Part shown: positions 15,935-53,777 of the stretch, piece after piece
How the letters are laid out: each line of letters starts with the position of its first letter
Numbering within the stretch: the first letter of the stretch is position 1
Virus record (IMG/VR): IMGVR_UViG_3300012944_000029
Location: 1 to 53,777 of that record
Direction: 5' to 3' (one strand)
Source of the DNA: a virus
Taxonomy: Duplodnaviria; Caudoviricetes
DNA: 53,777 nt
Made by a program: the position numbers and the translations under genes
Notes under the pieces: generated by a model
Told to the model about the DNA's origin: nothing
Seen by the model: the letters and a program-made list of their open reading frames with translations, nothing else
Databases searched by the model: none

Positions 15935-16585
15935 ATGCCCAATGAAGTCTTGCCTGTCGGTTCTGTTTTTTCCAGATTAAAAGTCATCTCGGCTGCCCCG
16001 CCCATGGTATATCCGAGTGGCCAAGTCGGGGCCAGGAGCGTTTGCGTGTGCGATTGCGGAAAGGAACACATCGTGACAAATAACAACCTCAAACGGGGTG
16101 CTGTTCGTTCATGCGGGTGCCTAGGAGTTGAAATGAGGCAGAAGTCCAATTTTAAACATGGACATTCTAGGGGTGGCCATGTTTCCAAAGCTATGAGGGT
16201 TTGGCGCCATATGATTGAGCGTTGTTGCAATCCCCATTCCATCAATTTCGAGCGTTATGGAGCCAGGGGAATTACGGTCTGTGATCGTTGGAAGGTGTTC
16301 ACTAATTGGCTTGAAGATATGGGAGAGCCTCCCGATGGGCTTACCTTGGAGAGAATCAAGAATGACGGCAACTATGAACCCGCAAACGTGAAGTGGGATA
16401 CGATTAAAAATCAATGCCGGAATAAGCGTAACAATGTCATGGTCACCATTGGTGGAGTTACCACTACGCTGATTGAGATTTGCGAACGATTTGGAAAGCC
16501 TATTTCCCTCGCAAGGAAGAGACTGAGGAAAGGATGGCCCGCTGATCGAGCCATTTTCGAAAAGAGTCGGAGAGATCATCATTGA
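15935..16585 (+). CDS. Free-standing HNH homing endonuclease
   Basis: CVCDCG...SCGC, WRHMIERC, YGARGITVCDRW, LERIKNDGNYEPANVKW, RNKRNN and a C-terminal HTH-like segment. Confidence 0.9.
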   Translation: MPNEVLPVGSVFSRLKVISAAPPMVYPSGQVGARSVCVCDCGKEHIVTNNNLKRGAVRSCGCLGVEMRQKSNFKHGHSRGGHVSKAMRVWRHMIERCCNPHSINFERYGARGITVCDRWKVFTNWLEDMGEPPDGLTLERIKNDGNYEPANVKWDTIKNQCRNKRNNVMVTIGGVTTTLIEICERFGKPISLARKRLRKGWPADRAIFEKSRRDHH

Positions 16586-17379
16586 ACACGATCCACGAGA
16601 CACTCCTCATCCACGAAAGGGAAGTAATCCTTCAGCTTCACGGGGAACTTCGTGACGTTTTGAAGTGCACGCCATTTGTCCACGAGCCCGGTGTAAAGAT
16701 GGCCCTTGGGGTTATTGTGGCTGCCGTAATATTCCTGCTTGAATCTCACCTGAGCCTCTGTGGCGTAGGCGAAATGGTCGAATACGATGCCTTCCGATTC
16801 CGTCTCGGCATGCGTGAATGGATTCAGCGTCAATCCATCAATGACCGGTGGCTCATGTCTTTCAAAGCGCATACCCGGGACAAAGCGCCAGGCTCTCAAC
16901 CACTCGTACTCAGTGTGGTTACCAAAGCCGTTGCGCGTGGCAATAACGAGATCGCGTCCGACGAAATAGCGACAGTAAAAGTACGCGGAGTTCTTCGATC
17001 TGTCGCGCTGAAACATCGCCACCAACGCCTCAATCTGCTCAGCGGTCCAACACTCGTCACTATCGACTTGGAGGAGAATTGTGGGTTCATAAATTGTCTC
17101 CAGAATTCGGTTGAACATGGCCGCTTTCCCTGGCCATTCGGATCGCCTGAACACATGCACACGCGAGTCGAAAGCACGCACGGAATCCAGGTATTCTGTC
17201 GTGCCGTCCTGAGACAGGCGCGGGGCCATCTTCGAGACCCATGATGTGTCCAACACAGGCGCGGCGACACCTTCCGCCACGAGCCATTCCCAGTCGCTCT
17301 TGAGCTTGCGAAATTCTGGGTAATGGAGCGTCACGAAGGGCATGGCGTCGAGGGCGATCGTTACGATGGTGATTTTCAT
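16579..17379 (-). CDS. GT2-like glycosyltransferase
   Basis: MKITIVTIALDAMPF start; SQDGT; LLQVDSDECW DxD; HEP and HFAY motifs. Confidence 0.8.
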   Translation of the reverse strand: MKITIVTIALDAMPFVTLHYPEFRKLKSDWEWLVAEGVAAPVLDTSWVSKMAPRLSQDGTTEYLDSVRAFDSRVHVFRRSEWPGKAAMFNRILETIYEPTILLQVDSDECWTAEQIEALVAMFQRDRSKNSAYFYCRYFVGRDLVIATRNGFGNHTEYEWLRAWRFVPGMRFERHEPPVIDGLTLNPFTHAETESEGIVFDHFAYATEAQVRFKQEYYGSHNNPKGHLYTGLVDKWRALQNVTKFPVKLKDYFPFVDEECLVDRVQ

Positions 17380-18041
17380 TCAAGAATTTCCCAATGCCGT
17401 CTGAGCTTTGTAGGTTCCCTGCCACCCGGACGCGCGTACTTGTGGAACACGAGTCGTTTAGCATTCACCTTCGACATCAGGTCCACAAGTGAAAGAAAAG
17501 CGCTGTCGATGCAATGAATTTCCGTGGCGTTCTCAATGACCGCACACCAGTCGAAAATCGTCGCGGACTTATGGGCGAAGACCGCAGGAATATCCGGCAA
17601 CTTTTCAGGGTCGATAAAAAAACATCGTGTGCGATCATCGTGCACAAATACGTAGGGATAATCCAGCGTCTTAACTTCCCTATGCGGATCACGCACGACA
17701 TGAAACCCCTCCCACCGAAGCTCAGGCCGAAGGCCTGCCATGCGGTATAGATCGGTGTCCCAATGATCAATGTCGAAGCCCTCGCCGTGAAGGCCGAGCC
17801 TCAAGGTCTTGAGCTTATGCTTGTCCCGGCCTTCGGCAATATCGCGAGCCTGCTGATCGTCGTCCACGGGGATGATCTGGATTCTCGGATCGTCACGGAA
17901 TTGGAAATTCACGCTCGGCACATTTCTGTGTTTAACGGGAACGAAGACGTTGAAGTCCTTGGCGAAGTGCCGGACAAGTGAGTTGCAGATGAGCGCATCT
18001 CCGAGACCGCCGTGCCACAAAATGTAAAGGCTTTCACTCAT
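17376..18041 (-). CDS. GT-B-like (GT9-related) glycosyltransferase
   Basis: HGGLGDALIC N-terminal motif; IHCIDSAFLSL C-terminal motif. Confidence 0.65.
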   Translation of the reverse strand: MSESLYILWHGGLGDALICNSLVRHFAKDFNVFVPVKHRNVPSVNFQFRDDPRIQIIPVDDDQQARDIAEGRDKHKLKTLRLGLHGEGFDIDHWDTDLYRMAGLRPELRWEGFHVVRDPHREVKTLDYPYVFVHDDRTRCFFIDPEKLPDIPAVFAHKSATIFDWCAVIENATEIHCIDSAFLSLVDLMSKVNAKRLVFHKYARPGGREPTKLRRHWEILE

Positions 18042-18700
18042 GTCGTGAGAAAGTTTATGCGCTTCTGCCAATCGTAACCATTCGGCTCATCGTCCTGACT
18101 GAACCTCTCACCAATGAACCGAAAATCCCCCATCTTGGCCGGGAACGGACGCGCCCCCGTCCATTGGCCGCAGAAATCGTGCTGGAGGCAGTCGCCCTTG
18201 ATCATTGGCCACACCTTTTCCCAAAGGAACCGCTGATCATCCATGTACTCTCGGCTCTCCACATTAACGTCCTTCATCAGCGTCAGCATGCTCGGGATAG
18301 CACCCTTCACGGCACCCCACATGCCGCCCATCATGGGGTGTTTGTGCCCAGGATGGTCCCGAATCACGTGCGCGCTCTTGCCGGACTCGATCCATTCCTG
18401 CACGGCCTTGGCTTCGCGCTCGTTCAGGCGGGAATCAGCGTCACGGACGATATAGCGGTCCACGTCAGGAATATCATTCACGAGGAAGCGCGTGAACATC
18501 GTGACGCGTTCAAGTGGCATTTTGAGGTCGCAAGAGTCCCGAAGCGCGTTAAGGGTTTTGCGAGGCACGTCACGGTCAGCCCAGACGATCACGTCCCAGC
18601 CGGGATAAATGACCGGGGCAAGCTCGACGTTGGCCAGAGCGCCACTCAGGTAAACGGGGTCCTTTCCGTATATGCTCATTGACACGACTGACCGGTTCAT
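18038..18700 (-). CDS. Putative glycosyltransferase
   Basis: IVRDADSRL DxD, HVIRDHPGH, MGGMWG and DDQ-FL motifs; cluster context. Confidence 0.6.
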   Translation of the reverse strand: MNRSVVSMSIYGKDPVYLSGALANVELAPVIYPGWDVIVWADRDVPRKTLNALRDSCDLKMPLERVTMFTRFLVNDIPDVDRYIVRDADSRLNEREAKAVQEWIESGKSAHVIRDHPGHKHPMMGGMWGAVKGAIPSMLTLMKDVNVESREYMDDQRFLWEKVWPMIKGDCLQHDFCGQWTGARPFPAKMGDFRFIGERFSQDDEPNGYDWQKRINFLTT

Positions 18701-18706
18701 AGACGT

Positions 18707-18925
18707 TTAATCAATCCGCAAGCGGTTCGCGAAAACCGAGCACCGCGCAAACAAAAGCGAGGTTCTGTTTACAATTATCCGCGGTAAAGGGATCACATTC
18801 GGAATGTGGTTGAAGCAGGCCGCGTTAGAAAAGAGCTTCAGGGTTACCCTCTTTTCCTCCTGGCAACAGGGGAGAAAGGGGCGTTCTGATCTTGGGCTGT
18901 CTTTTCCCCTTCTTGTCGTTCTCAT
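18707..18925 (+). ncRNA. Structured non-coding element, copy A (paralogue of 51121-51471)
   Basis: Hairpin-dense intergenic gap sharing nine ordered motifs with the 51-kb gap. Confidence 0.55.
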
Positions 18926-20484
18926 GGCGGGGCGACCAGCGGGTAATCGTATCCTCTCGCCTTGCACCATTCCTTGGCGAGATTCATGTTCCATTGCTTG
19001 GCCGGATTGTCATTGGGCGTCTCGCGCCATTTCCGTGAGTGCGGCTCATGCAACACATATCCGAGTGGCAATTCCGCGCCGGGTATGGTAGTGAGAATAT
19101 TATGGTACGTCGTCCGAATCCCGATGGACTCCCGAATCATGAGCGTCATCACAATATCCCACTCCTGTTCGCCCAGAAGAAAATCAGGAATGCTCGCCCA
19201 GTTGGACCGGATCCATTCCGGCCTGAAAGCGAACAGGTCACGCCCGAGATCGCTTTTGTAACGCCGCGCCAGTTCCTCTGGACTTTCTGCTAGATCAGGC
19301 CTGACGCCCGCGACGAAGTTCAGCCTGAAAGATGATACCGCGCCCATCTGCCCATTCACGGCATGAAGCAGGTCCACGATTTTGGGGTGCAGCACCGTGT
19401 CGTCATTGGTCAAGACGATCCAGTCGTTGTCCTGAGCGATAGTCAGTCCCTCCACGAGCACGTCCTTCAGGTATGTCAATTTTCGGTCATCCCCGATCAG
19501 ACCAGAGTGCCTGTCAGGGTGCCACACATGCACCGGTCGCGCAGCACCGCTCTTGTAAAGCGGTATCCATGAATCGAATGCGTGCATCACGCGCCCGTAC
19601 GATTCGTCACTTACGTGCCGCTCTACGACATGAACCAGTTTGGCTTGGGACGTTTTCCAGATGGCCCTGGGCGGGTCGGCATATACCGTTTCGGTCCTGG
19701 TCCGAATGGGAAACAAATCAGAAATCACCTTGCCAGCCTTCTGAATCATGGTCTGGCCGGTGGCCACAGTTGCCTTGGCAATTTTGGTGGCCACACTGGC
19801 CCGCTTCTCCCGGAGTCGATCGATCAGCGTGCCATCCTTGCACCGATGGAACACAACCGCGTCAGGGCTGACGATGTACTCGACAGATTGCCACGTTGGG
19901 AATGTCGGCGGTTTACCGCTCACTTGCCACACATGCTGCATGAAATGATTGGCTGAATGAGTGAGTGTCGGGACGATCTCCGCACCGGCGACGCGGTCCC
20001 AAGGCGCTTGCCGGCAGAACAAAGCGTTTGAACTGTAATCGCAGACGTTCCACGGCAGGACGCACGCGCCATTGATATGCTCGCCGGGCGGCACGAGGTT
20101 GCCGGTGAACAATTTTGCACCGCGTTTATGCTCATCCTCAATCTCAGTGATCCATCCAGGCTTCAACGGCACGACATCAGACTCCCACCAATACCATGAG
20201 TCCCTGAGATTGGCGTGCACGTAGCGGGCCGCAGCTTGCCAAGCCCAATTCTGTGGTTCAGGCCATTTGGTGTTTCCCTCGAAGGCATCGTATTCAAGTG
20301 TCTTGACGGTCCTGAAATAGTCATTGGCCAAACTCCTGATCATGGCCTTGGGAGCTTCGGACATGCCTCTCTCGCACGAGAGCAACGCGGCGAACGGGAC
20401 ATCGCCATCAAGCTCAATGGCCCATTCTAGGTTACGTATTTGGCGGTCCACGTCACCGTCGAAGAATGGCACTACGACAAGCAT
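18922..20484 (-). CDS. Two-domain glycosyltransferase-like protein
   Basis: MLVVVPF start; WWESDVV and LTNDDTVL acidic motifs in two halves; cluster context. Confidence 0.55.
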   Translation of the reverse strand: MLVVVPFFDGDVDRQIRNLEWAIELDGDVPFAALLSCERGMSEAPKAMIRSLANDYFRTVKTLEYDAFEGNTKWPEPQNWAWQAAARYVHANLRDSWYWWESDVVPLKPGWITEIEDEHKRGAKLFTGNLVPPGEHINGACVLPWNVCDYSSNALFCRQAPWDRVAGAEIVPTLTHSANHFMQHVWQVSGKPPTFPTWQSVEYIVSPDAVVFHRCKDGTLIDRLREKRASVATKIAKATVATGQTMIQKAGKVISDLFPIRTRTETVYADPPRAIWKTSQAKLVHVVERHVSDESYGRVMHAFDSWIPLYKSGAARPVHVWHPDRHSGLIGDDRKLTYLKDVLVEGLTIAQDNDWIVLTNDDTVLHPKIVDLLHAVNGQMGAVSSFRLNFVAGVRPDLAESPEELARRYKSDLGRDLFAFRPEWIRSNWASIPDFLLGEQEWDIVMTLMIRESIGIRTTYHNILTTIPGAELPLGYVLHEPHSRKWRETPNDNPAKQWNMNLAKEWCKARGYDYPLVAPP

Positions 20485-49574: not shown

Positions 49575-50273
49575 TCAGGCCCGTTTGAAAAGTCTGGCTG
49601 TGCGCCGGATGAACCAGATGCAAAAGACCGGATGGACCGTGTTGTGCGCGACATCGCTGCCGCCATCGGCCATGACATTCACGTTGTCACCGCCGCCAAA
49701 ATTGTGGCCAGAATAAAGTCGAACGGCGGTTTGGCCGGAACCAGAAGTGAAGTCCCTCGACGTGGTGTGCTGATGCTTGGCCAGTTCAGTTTGGAGCAAC
49801 ACATGCCTGTCCTCACCGAAGTTCATGCCGGCGGTCAGGACATCTCCCGCCGCAAGTGTGCCTGGACCCATCGGGGACTTTGCCGCGAGTTGCGTGACGA
49901 CTTCCCACATCTGACCATTCTTCCACGGAGCTACCGGTGCGCCAGCTTCCCCACCATCCAAAGTCTCGAAGAACGTCGAAGCAACCGGAGTCTCGCTGTA
50001 ATACATCATCGTTGAACCTGGAGCCATGGGGTGCGTCGAAATCCAATCGCCTGTAGAATAAACATACCATGCGTCGGGTGTGCCATCAGCGTTGTAACGG
50101 AACCACGGGTTCCCCTGATCCGCGACGGCTGGCACGGCGTTTCCCGTGTTGATCCCCAGCGATCCCGAGAGGACCACGCGAAGATAATTCTGGAGATCAG
50201 CAACGAGCTGAGCCCAGTTCGTGGGGCAGTAATCCGACGCTGGCGGCGTTGCGAGGAGTTGAGCAGTGGCCAT
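49575..50273 (-). CDS. Tail collar-like / short fibre protein
   Basis: GEDRHVLLQTELAKHQH...AHNTVHP...FI-R motifs. Confidence 0.7.
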   Translation of the reverse strand: MATAQLLATPPASDYCPTNWAQLVADLQNYLRVVLSGSLGINTGNAVPAVADQGNPWFRYNADGTPDAWYVYSTGDWISTHPMAPGSTMMYYSETPVASTFFETLDGGEAGAPVAPWKNGQMWEVVTQLAAKSPMGPGTLAAGDVLTAGMNFGEDRHVLLQTELAKHQHTTSRDFTSGSGQTAVRLYSGHNFGGGDNVNVMADGGSDVAHNTVHPVFCIWFIRRTARLFKRA

Positions 50274-50275
50274 GC

Positions 50276-51076
50276 CTATTTATCCAGCTTATACGTGTCA
50301 ATCACGTCCCCGTCAACGCTGAGCGCTCTGAAGCTCAGTCTGTTTTGGGAGGCGACGATCTTGATTGCTCCAAATTTCGCATTGTATCTGACGACACTTG
50401 ATCCAATCGGCGTTCCGAAGCCACGTAAACTCTCACCACTAAAACCGCCCACAAAATAAGGAAAGGTACCCACAACAAGTCGCTCATAAGCATGTCCATG
50501 CCCTGACATTACCACATCGGCGCTCCACAAAGCGAATGGCCATTGCATCCAGACGCTTGAGCCGTGTGTAACGTCGCTCGAGTACGGTGGGTGATGACAG
50601 ACGACAATCTTCCATGGCGCGGTGCTCTGGCTCAGGGCCGTTTGCAGCCATTGGCCTTGAGCGGAGCTTGAGGTTGTTCCATCGGGCTCCCGGGGATCGC
50701 TGTCGAGCATGAACAACTCCACTGGCCCGAGGCGTTGACGGTAGTATCTCGCACCGTTGACGATGGTGAAAAAGGTGAGATAATCCGCCAGGTTATTGGT
50801 GTCCCAATCGTGATTGCCGGGAGCTGGGTAAAATGCCGACCGCGCAATCCACTCAGAATAGTTCGCATTAACGTCCGTAGCATAATTTCCATTGTACGAA
50901 TTGTCCCCGAGCGTGATGATCAGGTTTGGATTGTCCGCGTCGAGGAGCGCCTTGACCGCCGCTTCGTCACTGCCCCCGTCGCCATAATCGCCAATGGCCC
51001 AAAGCGACAGCTCGGAATTGTCGTAAGCCAAAGAGTCAGGCGGACAGCAGGAGATGGTCGGGCAGGTTGCGCTCAT
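50276..51076 (-). CDS. Calcineurin-like metallophosphoesterase (purple-acid-phosphatase type)
   Basis: GDYG, LGDNSY, GNHD, HHPPY and GHGH-YER metal-ligand motifs. Confidence 0.92.
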   Translation of the reverse strand: MSATCPTISCCPPDSLAYDNSELSLWAIGDYGDGGSDEAAVKALLDADNPNLIITLGDNSYNGNYATDVNANYSEWIARSAFYPAPGNHDWDTNNLADYLTFFTIVNGARYYRQRLGPVELFMLDSDPREPDGTTSSSAQGQWLQTALSQSTAPWKIVVCHHPPYSSDVTHGSSVWMQWPFALWSADVVMSGHGHAYERLVVGTFPYFVGGFSGESLRGFGTPIGSSVVRYNAKFGAIKIVASQNRLSFRALSVDGDVIDTYKLDK

Positions 51077-51087
51077 TGAAAATCCGT

Positions 51088-51117
51088 TTGACGGCTAAGG
51101 GCCGGATTGATTATCTT
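51088..51117 (+). promoter_or_regulatory. Promoter pointing into the structured non-coding element
   Basis: TTGACG-N18-TATCTT. Confidence 0.5.
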
Positions 51118-51120
51118 CAT

Positions 51121-51471
51121 CTTCGTCAATTAGTGTTGATGCGAACGTGCCCGAGCCGGAACCTGGCAACCCCGGTTCACACCCTGCCAAGGGTGAACAC
51201 TAAGGGCACGCCAATTTTAGTTTTCATCTCATCAATTGCCAGTCAATCGACTGGTCTGTTCGATCCCGAGCACAGATCAAAAAGTTAGGGTTTGAATGTC
51301 GCCTGCGATTAAACGCAAGGTAAATGCCAGAGGCAGACACGCCGGGGGCGACTCATTAAGTTCCTCGCGGGGGGTACCCCATTGTTGCGCCGCCTTTCTC
51401 GGATTCGGGGAAAGGGGGATAAAGGGGGTTTGGGGTTCTGAGCCGTTGTCCCCTGCTTTTTTCTTTCTCAT
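51121..51471 (+). ncRNA. Structured non-coding element, copy B (~350 nt)
   Basis: Upstream promoter, continuous hairpins and multiloops, G-tracts and a terminal T-run; paralogous to 18707-18925. Confidence 0.6.
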
Positions 51472-53180
51472 GCGGTGATCTGCGTTGGTTTCTCCTGGAG
51501 GCTTGCGAACAGTTTCATAAACTTCACCCGGCAAAAGCCTGTCATGGCCAAACGCACCTGATATTCGTAAGCGTCCCTGCTAAGCTTGGTCTGGCCAGAC
51601 TCGCAGGCGATCGGTGGCTGGCCAATCTCAATCTCTGGCCGATATTGCTCCGTCCAATTCTGGAGCGTCATACAATCGGTTGTCGCTTCGCAGTTGTCGA
51701 TCGAGCCGCACTCGGTCCACTTCGCCCAATCTACCCAGCACGGGTATTGGTCCGGCTTCCATTTGAGGTCAAAGTCCACTTCCCCAGCCACCCGGTCAAT
51801 GAAGAGTGTCAATCCCTGGAGGCGCTTACGCAACGTCGTGGCGAACGAGTAGGACCCCGTCTCGAAACTCCATGTGACGCGGTTCCGTCCATTGTCGAAA
51901 CGTTCATTGCGGGTCTGCTCCCAAAGCTCGATCTGATTCTGAGGGTTCAGCACGAACATGAAACAGCGCTCCTGACCGCTGATGGTGCACTTGAGAATCT
52001 GGAGGATGTTGAGCCCAGTCCACATGCCTTCCCAAACGGGTGGAGATTTCCCCGCCATTGTCGAGAGAATATCAAAATCGAGCACACCAAGCGCCTTGTG
52101 AATGACACCATGCTCGGTCCAATACGGCTTGGCTGTCATCAGCAAGCGATTGTCGAATAGCACCGCGCTAGACCAGTTCAGGAGCGTCTGATCATCGTCA
52201 TCAAACACGCGGACAGCTTCGCCCGAGACCGGCGTGTTGCCCCAGGTCGTAAAATCACGTCTCGCCATGATCAAACTGCACACGCCAACGTTCGACCGGA
52301 AAAACATATCACCATTGACGAGAATCAGAGAGTTTTGCGACAGCGCGCCGTACTGCAGGAGCACGACCGTCTGAATCGGCGTCGTGAGATTCTTCCAAGT
52401 CGTCCGATCTGTCGGGGCCAGGTTGGTGAACATTGTGCCCGCAGTGGACACAACAATGTCGCCTTGGCCAAGAGACGTGTCGGGAATGGCAATCACGTTC
52501 ATTGCGTTGATGTCCCCGGAACTGTCCGGGACACCAAAGGCACCGCCTTCATTCAGGAACGTGTTCTCTGTCACTTTAAGCACAGCGTCACGCCGACCCA
52601 GTGACGGAGTGCCTGACGGCCCACCAAAGATGTCGCCAGCCATATAGTGCCGACCTTTGGAAAGCCACACGCGGCCTTTGGCGTAAACCATCTGGCGGCC
52701 AACTGGAAGTTCTCCAGTCAGCGCCGCCGTCCGCATAGCCGCGCCGTTGTAGATGCGGGGCTTGGACTCGTCATCCTGCATGATGAGCCAATCCTCAGCC
52801 TGCTCGAACCAGACCTGGCGGCGGGGCGATGTCAGGCCGACCGTGATTTCCTTGACGAGATTATTCGTTGAAACATTGATGCGCCATTGCCGCCCATTGA
52901 TGGACGCCACGAGCACCGGGAGTCCGTTCGGTGGATTGTACGCGCGCGCGCCTTGAAAGAATCCGTCTTGAAACGGGGCTAAAGCGTCGTCACCGGAAAA
53001 GGTGATCGGAACACGCTTCTGTCCCGGACGCCCATAAGCGAAGCCGTTGCGGACCGTGCCATTCGTGAGGAAAGCGAGTTGGTTCTTACTGATCAGCGAG
53101 ACACGGCCCGGCCGGCTGTCGATGCCACGCTCAAGGGTGGAGAACCCGTCTGTATGATAATCACGATCCCTGGCTGACAC
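51468..53180 (-). CDS. Tail nozzle / DNA stabilisation protein (P22 gp10 / T7 gp12-like)
   Basis: 570 aa beta-propeller-like sequence; N-terminal L-NG...RPG motif; position in the tail operon. Confidence 0.7.
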   Translation of the reverse strand: MSARDRDYHTDGFSTLERGIDSRPGRVSLISKNQLAFLTNGTVRNGFAYGRPGQKRVPITFSGDDALAPFQDGFFQGARAYNPPNGLPVLVASINGRQWRINVSTNNLVKEITVGLTSPRRQVWFEQAEDWLIMQDDESKPRIYNGAAMRTAALTGELPVGRQMVYAKGRVWLSKGRHYMAGDIFGGPSGTPSLGRRDAVLKVTENTFLNEGGAFGVPDSSGDINAMNVIAIPDTSLGQGDIVVSTAGTMFTNLAPTDRTTWKNLTTPIQTVVLLQYGALSQNSLILVNGDMFFRSNVGVCSLIMARRDFTTWGNTPVSGEAVRVFDDDDQTLLNWSSAVLFDNRLLMTAKPYWTEHGVIHKALGVLDFDILSTMAGKSPPVWEGMWTGLNILQILKCTISGQERCFMFVLNPQNQIELWEQTRNERFDNGRNRVTWSFETGSYSFATTLRKRLQGLTLFIDRVAGEVDFDLKWKPDQYPCWVDWAKWTECGSIDNCEATTDCMTLQNWTEQYRPEIEIGQPPIACESGQTKLSRDAYEYQVRLAMTGFCRVKFMKLFASLQEKPTQITA

Positions 53181-53654: not shown

Positions 53655-53777
53655 ATGGCCTGATCCGCCGTCGTGTTCATATTGGCGCTGGCCAGCTTCC
53701 CAACATAACCGTAGCCGGGAACGGCCAGCGGCGTATTCTCCGCAATGGCCGTGATCCTCCCCTTGGTGTCCACAGTC
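53655..53777. repeat. 123-bp terminal direct repeat, right copy
   Basis: Identical to 1-123. Confidence 0.97.

Follow-up and report, generated by a model that had tools for sequence, protein, structure and literature searches.

Two diverged intergenic inserts at gene junctions of a Caudoviricetes phage, tentatively read as copies of a non-autonomous insertion cassette

The stretch of DNA analysed here (the window) is the whole of IMG/VR virus record IMGVR_UViG_3300012944_000029, 53,777 bp from a phage of the Caudoviricetes. Bases 1-123 are identical to bases 53655-53777 and the record is classed with direct terminal repeats and as 100% complete, so that the window corresponds to the entire phage genome. 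The minus strand carries most of the genes, and two gaps between minus-strand genes are the subject of this report. One, which we call copy A, is flanked by a 220-aa gene (18038-18700) and a 520-aa gene (18922-20484). The other extends for 391 nt from the end of a 570-aa gene (51468-53180) to a metallophosphatase gene (50276-51076; Pfam Metallophos, E 4.5e-16) and is occupied by copy B and by a further stretch, unit C. An earlier note, made from the sequence without database searches, had described the two gaps as a duplicated and diverged structured non-coding element. We show below that the copies are homologous and that, judged by the gene order of relatives, they are insertions, and we tentatively interpret them as two copies of one small insertion cassette.

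Copies A and B are homologous. Local and semi-global alignment of 18701-18925 with 51240-51471 gave z scores of 6.0-6.7; none of 500 dinucleotide-shuffled controls reached the score of the true pair, nor did any of 896 other chunks of the window (both strands). Alignment of copy A with reverse-complemented copy B was at chance level (z 0.16). The motifs that the earlier note had listed as shared were confirmed, in the same order and at the positions it gave. They include GTTCG-N-CGAGCAC at 18725 and 51258 (two matches in the window vs 0.04 expected), GGGGA(G/T)AAAGGGG at 18869 and 51415, GTTCTGA at 18883 and 51435, and a terminal TTCTCAT at 18919 and 51465. In both copies the TCA within this last motif supplies the TGA stop codon of the minus-strand gene upstream, as had been claimed. 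A MAFFT alignment of the two copies contains 111 identical columns out of 242, and these are distributed unevenly: identity is 50% in columns 1-60, 32% in columns 61-120, 38% in columns 121-180 and 63% in columns 181-242. The copies share three exact runs of at least 7 nt, compared with 0.5 expected (P=0.008). The conserved part therefore consists of two end modules of about 60 nt each, and the middle is at chance level and not really alignable. No third copy was found in the window. A separate observation concerns an exact 11-nt word that is common to copy A (18707-18717, plus strand) and unit C (51103-51113, minus strand) in opposite orientation; by a rough estimate, about 0.02 such matches are expected.

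The borders of the inserts are alike (Table 1). In gene orientation, copy A starts directly after one ATGA and ends directly ahead of another, and ATGA (TCAT on the plus strand) is present at both borders of A, B and C. With ATGA on both borders, the upstream TGA and the downstream ATG survive. Read on the plus strand, A, B and C are each preceded by YTCAT (TTCAT for A, CTCAT for B and C) and each end in CTCAT. The N-terminus of the 220-aa protein, MN...SMSIYG, aligns with the N-termini of its homologues in three related loci (L162-L164), as read from the DNA. The gap that holds copy B is composite, with the A-like unit followed by the ATGAGATGA joint and then by unit C. Unit C was considered as a third family member in either orientation and rejected (z 0.52 and −0.61 against A and B). 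It has a strong hairpin of its own, of about 10 pairs, around 51173-51199.

Table 1. Positions of copy A, copy B, unit C and their parts in the window
Feature	Position	Strand	Description
Copy A	18701-18921	−	221-nt insertion between the 520-aa and 220-aa genes
TCAT (ATGA on the gene strand), low-coordinate border of copy A	18697-18700	+	contains the ATG of the 220-aa gene
TCAT (ATGA), high-coordinate border of copy A	18922-18925	+	TGA of the 520-aa gene and ATG of the 72-codon frame
Hairpin H1, copy A	18723-18745		4+3 pairs, 2-nt bulge, 7-nt loop
End module, copy A	18862-18916	+	G-rich tract 18869-18881, GTTCTGA 18883-18889, flanking pyrimidine tracts
A72, 72-codon open frame	18707-18925	−	from the ATGA overlap to a stop 6 nt ahead of the next ATG
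Copy B	51233-51467	−	235 nt, homologous to copy A, directly downstream of the 570-aa gene in gene orientation
TCAT (ATGA), border of copy B	51468-51471	+	stop (TGA) of the 570-aa gene, start (ATG) of the 64-codon frame
TCAT (ATGA), other border of copy B	51229-51232	+	in gene orientation within ATGAGATGA (51224-51232), a 2-codon mini-frame
Hairpin H1, copy B	51256-51275		arms of copy A, 4-nt loop; beyond the stop of the 64-codon frame
B64, 64-codon open frame	51277-51471	−	
Unit C	51077-51228	−	152 nt, rest of the gap up to the metallophosphatase ATG; TCAT/ATGA borders

The same two gene junctions were then compared with those of related phages. The 570-aa protein has hundreds of homologues, 29 of which were aligned as the basis for locus retrieval; the resulting profile yielded 80 loci from IMG/VR and 80 from metagenomes, and the 520-aa protein yielded nine from IMG/VR. 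All 169 loci are at most 50% identical at the protein level and are for this reason of no use for a DNA-level comparison of the element. A homologue of the window gene at 49575-50273 stands beside the 570-aa homologue in 79 of the first 80 loci, and among 24 loci examined in detail the next gene follows the 570-aa homologue within 3 nt in 17. Only two of the 169 loci (L086 and L114) have the metallophosphatase, and in each of them its ATG shares an ATGA overlap with the TGA of the gene upstream. In the window, 391 nt separate the two genes at this same junction, and ATGAG is found on both sides. The 520-aa protein has fewer homologues than the 570-aa protein, with the full gene present in four of the nine IMG/VR loci. 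In L162, L163 and L164 the 220-aa homologue follows the 520-aa homologue at 0, −4 (a GTGA overlap) and +1 nt, and the genes that are adjacent in these three loci are separated by the 221 nt of copy A in the window. Gene order in these relatives thus shows copies A and B as insertions into junctions that otherwise overlap or are 0-1 nt apart. A search of the elements against the 169 loci with blastn gave no match at E≤1, and no close relatives were found at the DNA level among GenBank phages or by single-protein patterns in IMG/VR.

Some of the relatives have DNA of their own at these places. Different, unrelated inserts occur at the same two junctions in L003, L013, L014, L015, L024, L025 and L165; they comprise ORFs (open reading frames) of 60 and 81 aa, gaps of 142 nt and, at the copy A junction of L165, an unrelated insert of 514 nt as measured between the chosen ORFs. 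In this group of phages, additional DNA seems to settle preferentially at both junctions.

Both copies contain an open frame that starts in the upstream ATGA overlap, a junction type that is common in this genome, and both frames (A72 and B64) were called as genes in the source annotation (P0193 and P0197). The conservation of the copies is nevertheless at the nucleotide level and is without codon-level signal, so that the codon-level explanation which the earlier note had weighed against its own proposal was not seen. BLASTP of the A72 peptide against the B64 peptide gave E=0.53. The first 19 residues align with 6 identities (6/19), and in the corresponding ungapped stretch (the first 57-75 nt) none of the three frames rose above the column-shuffle null (P 0.17-0.45). 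Identity by codon position is highest at the third (15/19) and lowest at the first (9/19). The conserved 3′ module is in frame 0 in copy A; in copy B it is in frame 1 with two stops, past the stop of B64. Relative to 66-codon windows of the long genes of the phage (0.236 ± 0.108), the codon-usage score of A72 is −0.10, below 99.2% of the windows, and that of B64 is 0.019, below 94%. A HMMER search of 1.84 billion representatives returned A72 itself and three long proteins; the latter matched over several short stretches (E 3.6e-6 to 4.8e-4), and we regard them as spurious. A profile of both peptides run against 5.8 billion proteins at E≤10 recovered only A72 and B64 themselves, and a protein-family search gave nothing for either frame. 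Structure models of A72 had low confidence (predicted local distance difference test, pLDDT, 46.9 with AlphaFold 2 and 0.43 in Atlas), which is uninformative for a lone sequence. Frames stayed open as long as A72 in 287 of 5000 shuffles and as long as B64 in 646 of 5000. We read the long open frames as reflecting selection for translation through the insert and not for a product. Readthrough of the upstream TGA (frame f1) into a shared C-terminal extension was also considered. It was rejected, as the likeness of the peptides is what the DNA identity predicts (P 0.17-0.45), and it is further disfavoured by the homologues of both upstream proteins, which end at the same length.

RNA structure was examined on both strands, since the earlier note had proposed an undescribed plus-strand RNA. 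No Rfam family matched the window at gathering thresholds, and at E≤10 the best score was 18.9 bits compared with thresholds of 39-71; the match to a known family that would have told against the earlier note was therefore not seen. A tRNA/tmRNA search found none. Single-sequence folds were not significant for either copy (z −1.54 for A and −0.99 for B on the plus strand, −0.80 and −0.20 on the minus strand). The RNAalifold consensus was −24.0 kcal/mol on the plus strand and −14.25 kcal/mol on the minus strand, and against 300 column-shuffled alignments these values correspond to z −1.98 (reached by 11 of 300) and z −0.03, respectively. Covariation and selection tests have low power with two sequences, and base-pair counts are biased because the structure was derived from the same two sequences. 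The excess on the plus strand hints in favour of the strand chosen in the earlier note, at a marginal level. Hairpin H1 has arms common to the two copies, with a double change from G-C to T-A at one pair; its loop is 7 nt long in A and 4 nt in B, and in copy B it folds at −11.2 kcal/mol (z −2.73). In the RNAalifold register H1 has a 2-nt bulge and no G-U pair and folds equally well on both strands; it is the long hairpin that contains many G-U pairs and is for that reason plus-strand specific. Of the two features on which the strand choice had been based, the GCAA tetraloop is present in copy A only and the conserved G-U pair depends on the register. The claim that the G-rich tract can pair either upstream or downstream held for both copies (−20.3 or −20.2 kcal/mol in A, −16.4 or −21.0 kcal/mol in B), with z only −0.9 to −1.9 for these hairpins.

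No sigma-70-like promoter and no terminator-like site for a plus-strand transcript was found around copy A in 18400-19200, and at copy B promoter-like sites were weak and confined to unit C. On the minus strand, weak promoter-like sites were noted at 51242-51214 and 51139-51110. When both strands of the window were scanned for canonical G-quadruplex motifs (four G runs of at least 3 with loops of 1-7), the sole match was 51407-51435 (plus strand), which places the motif of copy B on the template strand of the operon. It was rejected as a shared feature, as just two of the G runs are present in copy A. A group I intron has a U before its 5′ site and a G as its last base; by inspection, no cut within the ATGA repeat satisfies both rules, and such an intron was rejected.

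The explanation that we prefer, while giving it somewhat less than an even chance, is that A and B are two diverged copies of one non-autonomous insertion cassette at gene junctions. It is derived from the presence of homologous inserts at two unrelated junctions and their absence from all inspected relatives, together with the same 4-nt border word, the same orientation to transcription, conserved ends around a free middle, and the lack of a coding signal. The cassette would have been moved in trans by an enzyme that the phage does not encode, and each copy would have inserted precisely where the stop of one gene meets the start of the next in a co-transcribed pair. Three routes can be envisaged. 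The element may have inserted 3′ of YTCAT and ended in CTCAT in the manner of IS200/IS605; it may have transposed with a 4-bp target duplication; or it may have been exchanged by microhomology between ATGA junctions, for which the ERF-type and PD-(D/E)XK proteins of the phage could serve. The conserved, hairpin-bearing ends would be the parts needed by the machinery. We infer that insertion within an operon was tolerated by virtue of the frame that remains open from the ATGA overlap across the insert: ribosomes would keep travelling and downstream coupling would not be lost, and the peptide would not be the selected product. Among the interpretations offered in the earlier note, which as a whole is partly supported, the mobile element gains the most from the junction inserts, the ATGA borders and the conserved ends, with the lack of terminal inverted repeats counting against it. 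Paired priming or origin signals found no support, with no primase or polymerase family detected at E≤0.001 among 70 ORFs scanned.

Several results weigh against a cassette. There are no terminal inverted repeats: comparison of the ends with reverse-complemented ends gave P≥0.07 (0.91-0.98 for A and B, 0.34 for C and 0.07 for the whole B gap), and a repeat search returned no terminal pair. Nor do the left and right ends resemble each other (P≥0.05; 0.30 and 0.31 in a two-end test), whereas those of IS200/IS605 elements reportedly do. The phage does not encode a transposase as judged by the 70 ORFs, in which no Pfam family of transposase, integrase, HNH or reverse transcriptase was found, and by a six-frame scan of the phage for Y1_Tnp, which gave no match. 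The ATGA borders could come from selection alone, since an insertion into the overlap that survives must restore both signals. The empty sites are known from distant relatives with 33-47% protein identity, and an actual overlap at the copy A junction is seen in only one of three relatives; a relative nearer by protein (73% identical for P0002, of 569 aa, and 75% for P0121, of 517 aa) is represented by contigs of 5.3 kb and 3.2 kb. For B, the argument from the open frame is a weak one (P about 0.13), and A and B are not independent of each other. Further copies did not turn up: covariance model R1 found none in 164 loci or in four whole related records. Motif scans returned 0 and 28 stretches in IMG/VR and 36 in GTDB (185,579 species genomes), and these 28 and 36 matches were not extended by the model, whose best scores were 12.9 and 9.7 bits and covered the G-rich hairpin alone. 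Their number is close to the chance expectation by a rough estimate, and we rejected them as family members. With two copies and none found outside this genome, mobility is deduced from two old events, and the evidence is suggestive only.

A bolder form of the cassette proposal, which we consider unlikely, is a new kind of selfish element without inverted repeats that homes to the ATGA overlaps of packed phage operons. It would enter beside TCAT by means of hairpin ends on one DNA strand and restore stop and start. Its open frame would carry translation and coupling across, making the element nearly invisible to selection and to programs that find MITEs (miniature transposable elements with inverted repeats), and its G-rich strand might also yield an antisense RNA. 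In those parts of the literature that were available, no element aimed at ATGA overlaps turned up, which is not proof of absence.

Other explanations account for part of the data. The inserts could be cis-acting on the sense strand, as an intercistronic module for mRNA processing or stability or for the start of downstream translation, laid out as one conserved part after the stop and another that consists of an imperfect inverted repeat with a variable spacer, followed by GATTGA plus 10 nt before an ATG. Both copies do have the same orientation to transcription and the same position relative to stop and ATG, GATTGA-N10-ATG is present in each, and the H1 arms are the same around a loop of 4 or 7 nt. 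There is also a likeness to the extended start-associated sequences (ESAS) of mycobacteriophages, which according to PMC3203893 are 17-bp imperfect inverted repeats with a 4-13-bp spacer at start codons. We nevertheless judge this module unlikely: sense-strand folds are no better than shuffles, singly or as a consensus, GATTGA-N(8-12)-ATG occurs four times compared with 4.04 expected by chance, relatives manage without a spacer at these junctions, the ATG after the module in copy B opens a frame of only two codons, and there are two copies only. More doubtful is the proposal that A72 and B64 are two paralogous genes for small proteins, coupled to the upstream genes and fast-evolving, with one of them frameshifted. 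It would fit with the start of both frames in the ATGA overlap, their calls in the source record, the way A72 fills the gap to 6 nt before the next start, the survival of both frames beyond that seen in most shuffles, the alignable first 19 residues, and the unrelated small ORFs at the same junction in other relatives. Set against these are peptide similarity no higher than the nucleotide identity yields, the better conservation of third codon positions, a conserved 3′ module that is out of frame in B and past its stop, the poor codon usage of A72, and the lack of homologues in both protein collections; the absence of a confident fold is again uninformative for a lone sequence.

The plus-strand RNA is more doubtful again. 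In its full form it would be a structured non-coding RNA, antisense to both operons, whose G-rich tract switches between pyrimidine partners and whose 3′ end overlaps the upstream stop. The stronger plus-strand consensus, the strand specificity that the G-U pairs confer on the long hairpin, the two nearly isoenergetic alternative hairpins in both copies, and conservation at the nucleotide rather than the codon level all speak for it. A z of −1.98 from two sequences is marginal, however, the single-sequence values are not significant, and the pair counts carry the bias described above. Copy A has no promoter-like or terminator-like plus-strand site, the middle 120 columns are unconserved, and neither Rfam nor anything else searched contained a further family member. 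An antisense RNA would also leave the insertion of both copies at junctions unexplained. Least probable to us is a functionless relic, in which a stretch was duplicated by illegitimate recombination and is decaying in both places. The low overall identity and the lack of a significant fold, a protein signal or another family member are what a relic would give, and the ERF-type annealing protein and PD-(D/E)XK nuclease could promote such a duplication. The matches are clustered at the ends, however, and length and order have remained similar despite heavy divergence. Compact phage genomes tend to shed useless DNA, and duplication by itself leaves the ATGA on both borders at two separate junctions unaccounted for.

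The insertion cassette was compared with known small elements. Insertion sequences of the IS200/IS605 family insert downstream of a short motif, end in a similar motif and make no duplication; they have stem-loops at their ends, and gene-less derivatives exist (PMC10055086). Members from Geobacillus are reported to have TTCAT or TTTAT as adjacent motifs and TTCAC as the terminal motif (PMC10055086). Like their gene-less derivatives, the palindrome-associated transposable elements (PATEs), the cassette is small, requires no gene, lacks terminal inverted repeats, and has hairpins near its ends: H1 stands 22 nt away from one end, and the other end has a predicted G-rich/pyrimidine hairpin. The YTCAT at the left border and the CTCAT end in A, B and C are PATE-like as well, a resemblance from three cases that was noticed post hoc. 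Unlike PATEs, the cassette has dissimilar left and right ends (P 0.30 and 0.31) and is present in two diverged copies only, and the phage has no Y1 (TnpA) transposase. Whereas IS200/IS605 elements make no duplication, the 4-nt repeat of the cassette could equally be a true target duplication. Transposable elements in general are seldom found in phage genomes. MITEs have terminal inverted repeats of at least 10-15 bp by definition and are rare in viruses, with 0.01% of viral sequences positive (PMC11602168). The cassette is similarly short and non-coding, has a short direct repeat on either side and would have its functions supplied in trans. The ATGA that flanks A, B and C resembles the 2-10 bp direct duplication of MITEs but is indistinguishable from a pair of adjacent and terminal motifs, and unlike MITEs the cassette has no terminal inverted repeats. 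MITEs further occur in several copies, the host genome included; for the cassette, two copies were counted in the window and none in 164 loci or four related records. The mycobacteriophage mobile elements (MPMEs) MPME1 and MPME2 are ultra-small, occupy different sites in similar phage genomes and were recognised by means of an empty site; MPME1 is 439 bp long, carries inverted repeats on its left and right and brings 6 extra bp at one end (PMC3029335). The cassette shares with them its tiny size and its recognition by comparison with an empty site, but differs in its length of 221-235 nt, its lack of inverted repeats, its ATGA flanks and the distance of the relatives in which its empty sites are found.

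Other systems resemble the cassette in position or arrangement. A moron is a transcription unit of its own, with promoter, gene and terminator, located between genes that are adjacent in related lambdoid phages. The cassette likewise lies precisely between genes adjacent in relatives, but copy A has neither a promoter-like or terminator-like site nor a convincing gene. The start-associated sequences (SAS) and ESAS of Cluster K mycobacteriophages are conserved upstream of start codons as an imperfect inverted repeat with a variable spacer (PMC3203893). The 3′ module of the cassette has a comparable form, occurs in one orientation and is found just before a start codon; in contrast to SAS and ESAS, which are numerous in each genome and shared by related phages at the same genes, it is present twice, is absent from relatives and is part of a 220-nt insert. 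In lambdoid phages, the paired RNA sites nutL/nutR and putL/putR are located just downstream of the early promoters and have defined hairpin loops. Their two diverged copies per genome, transcribed orientation and location inside an operon are shared by the cassette, whose loops differ (4 vs 7 nt) and which has no sense-strand fold signal and no Rfam match. Diversity-generating retroelements have a reverse transcriptase nearby and template and variable repeats that are almost identical; the copies differ from these in that no reverse transcriptase is found among the 70 ORFs and in sharing only 111 of 242 columns. PMC2993671 does not mention PeSL, stem-loop or moron. The cassette works most like a small non-autonomous insertion element, yet it is without a defining feature of each of MITE, MPME and moron.

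Searches based on inverted repeats would miss such a cassette. If the interpretation as an insertion cassette is correct, small elements in stop/start overlaps could go unnoticed as the origin of intergenic 'ORFan' calls and as a way for new DNA to get into conserved phage operons. The source annotation called both frames here as genes. If instead the antisense RNA were real, a glycosyltransferase module and a tail module would both be targets of a new regulatory RNA present in two copies.

The remaining observations concern the genome at large and the genes next to the inserts. The 70 ORFs scanned contained 14 Pfam families (E≤0.001), among them an ERF-type annealing protein, a PD-(D/E)XK nuclease, a SNF2/DEAD helicase and a GH114 hydrolase, and two or three of the proteins are DNA methyltransferase-like. 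A Shine-Dalgarno-like 4-mer was seen at just 21 of the 66 gene starts. The region 16579-20484 consists of the 520-aa, 220-aa and 231-aa genes and a GT2 glycosyltransferase gene; the order of this block is kept in L163 and L164, with one insert in L165, and L162 stops short of the GT2 gene. Some homologues of the 520-aa protein have heptosyltransferase or GH130 domains, and the block probably serves in glycan modification. The metallophosphatase gene is accessory, found after the 570-aa homologue only in the two loci mentioned above. Its first approximately 20 residues (Cys-Cys-Pro-Pro-Asp...Ala-Tyr) are similar to a 23-codon ORF of L002 and to the beginning of the following ORF in L003, which suggests that an N-terminal module is common to the metallophosphatase and to these ORFs at the same position.

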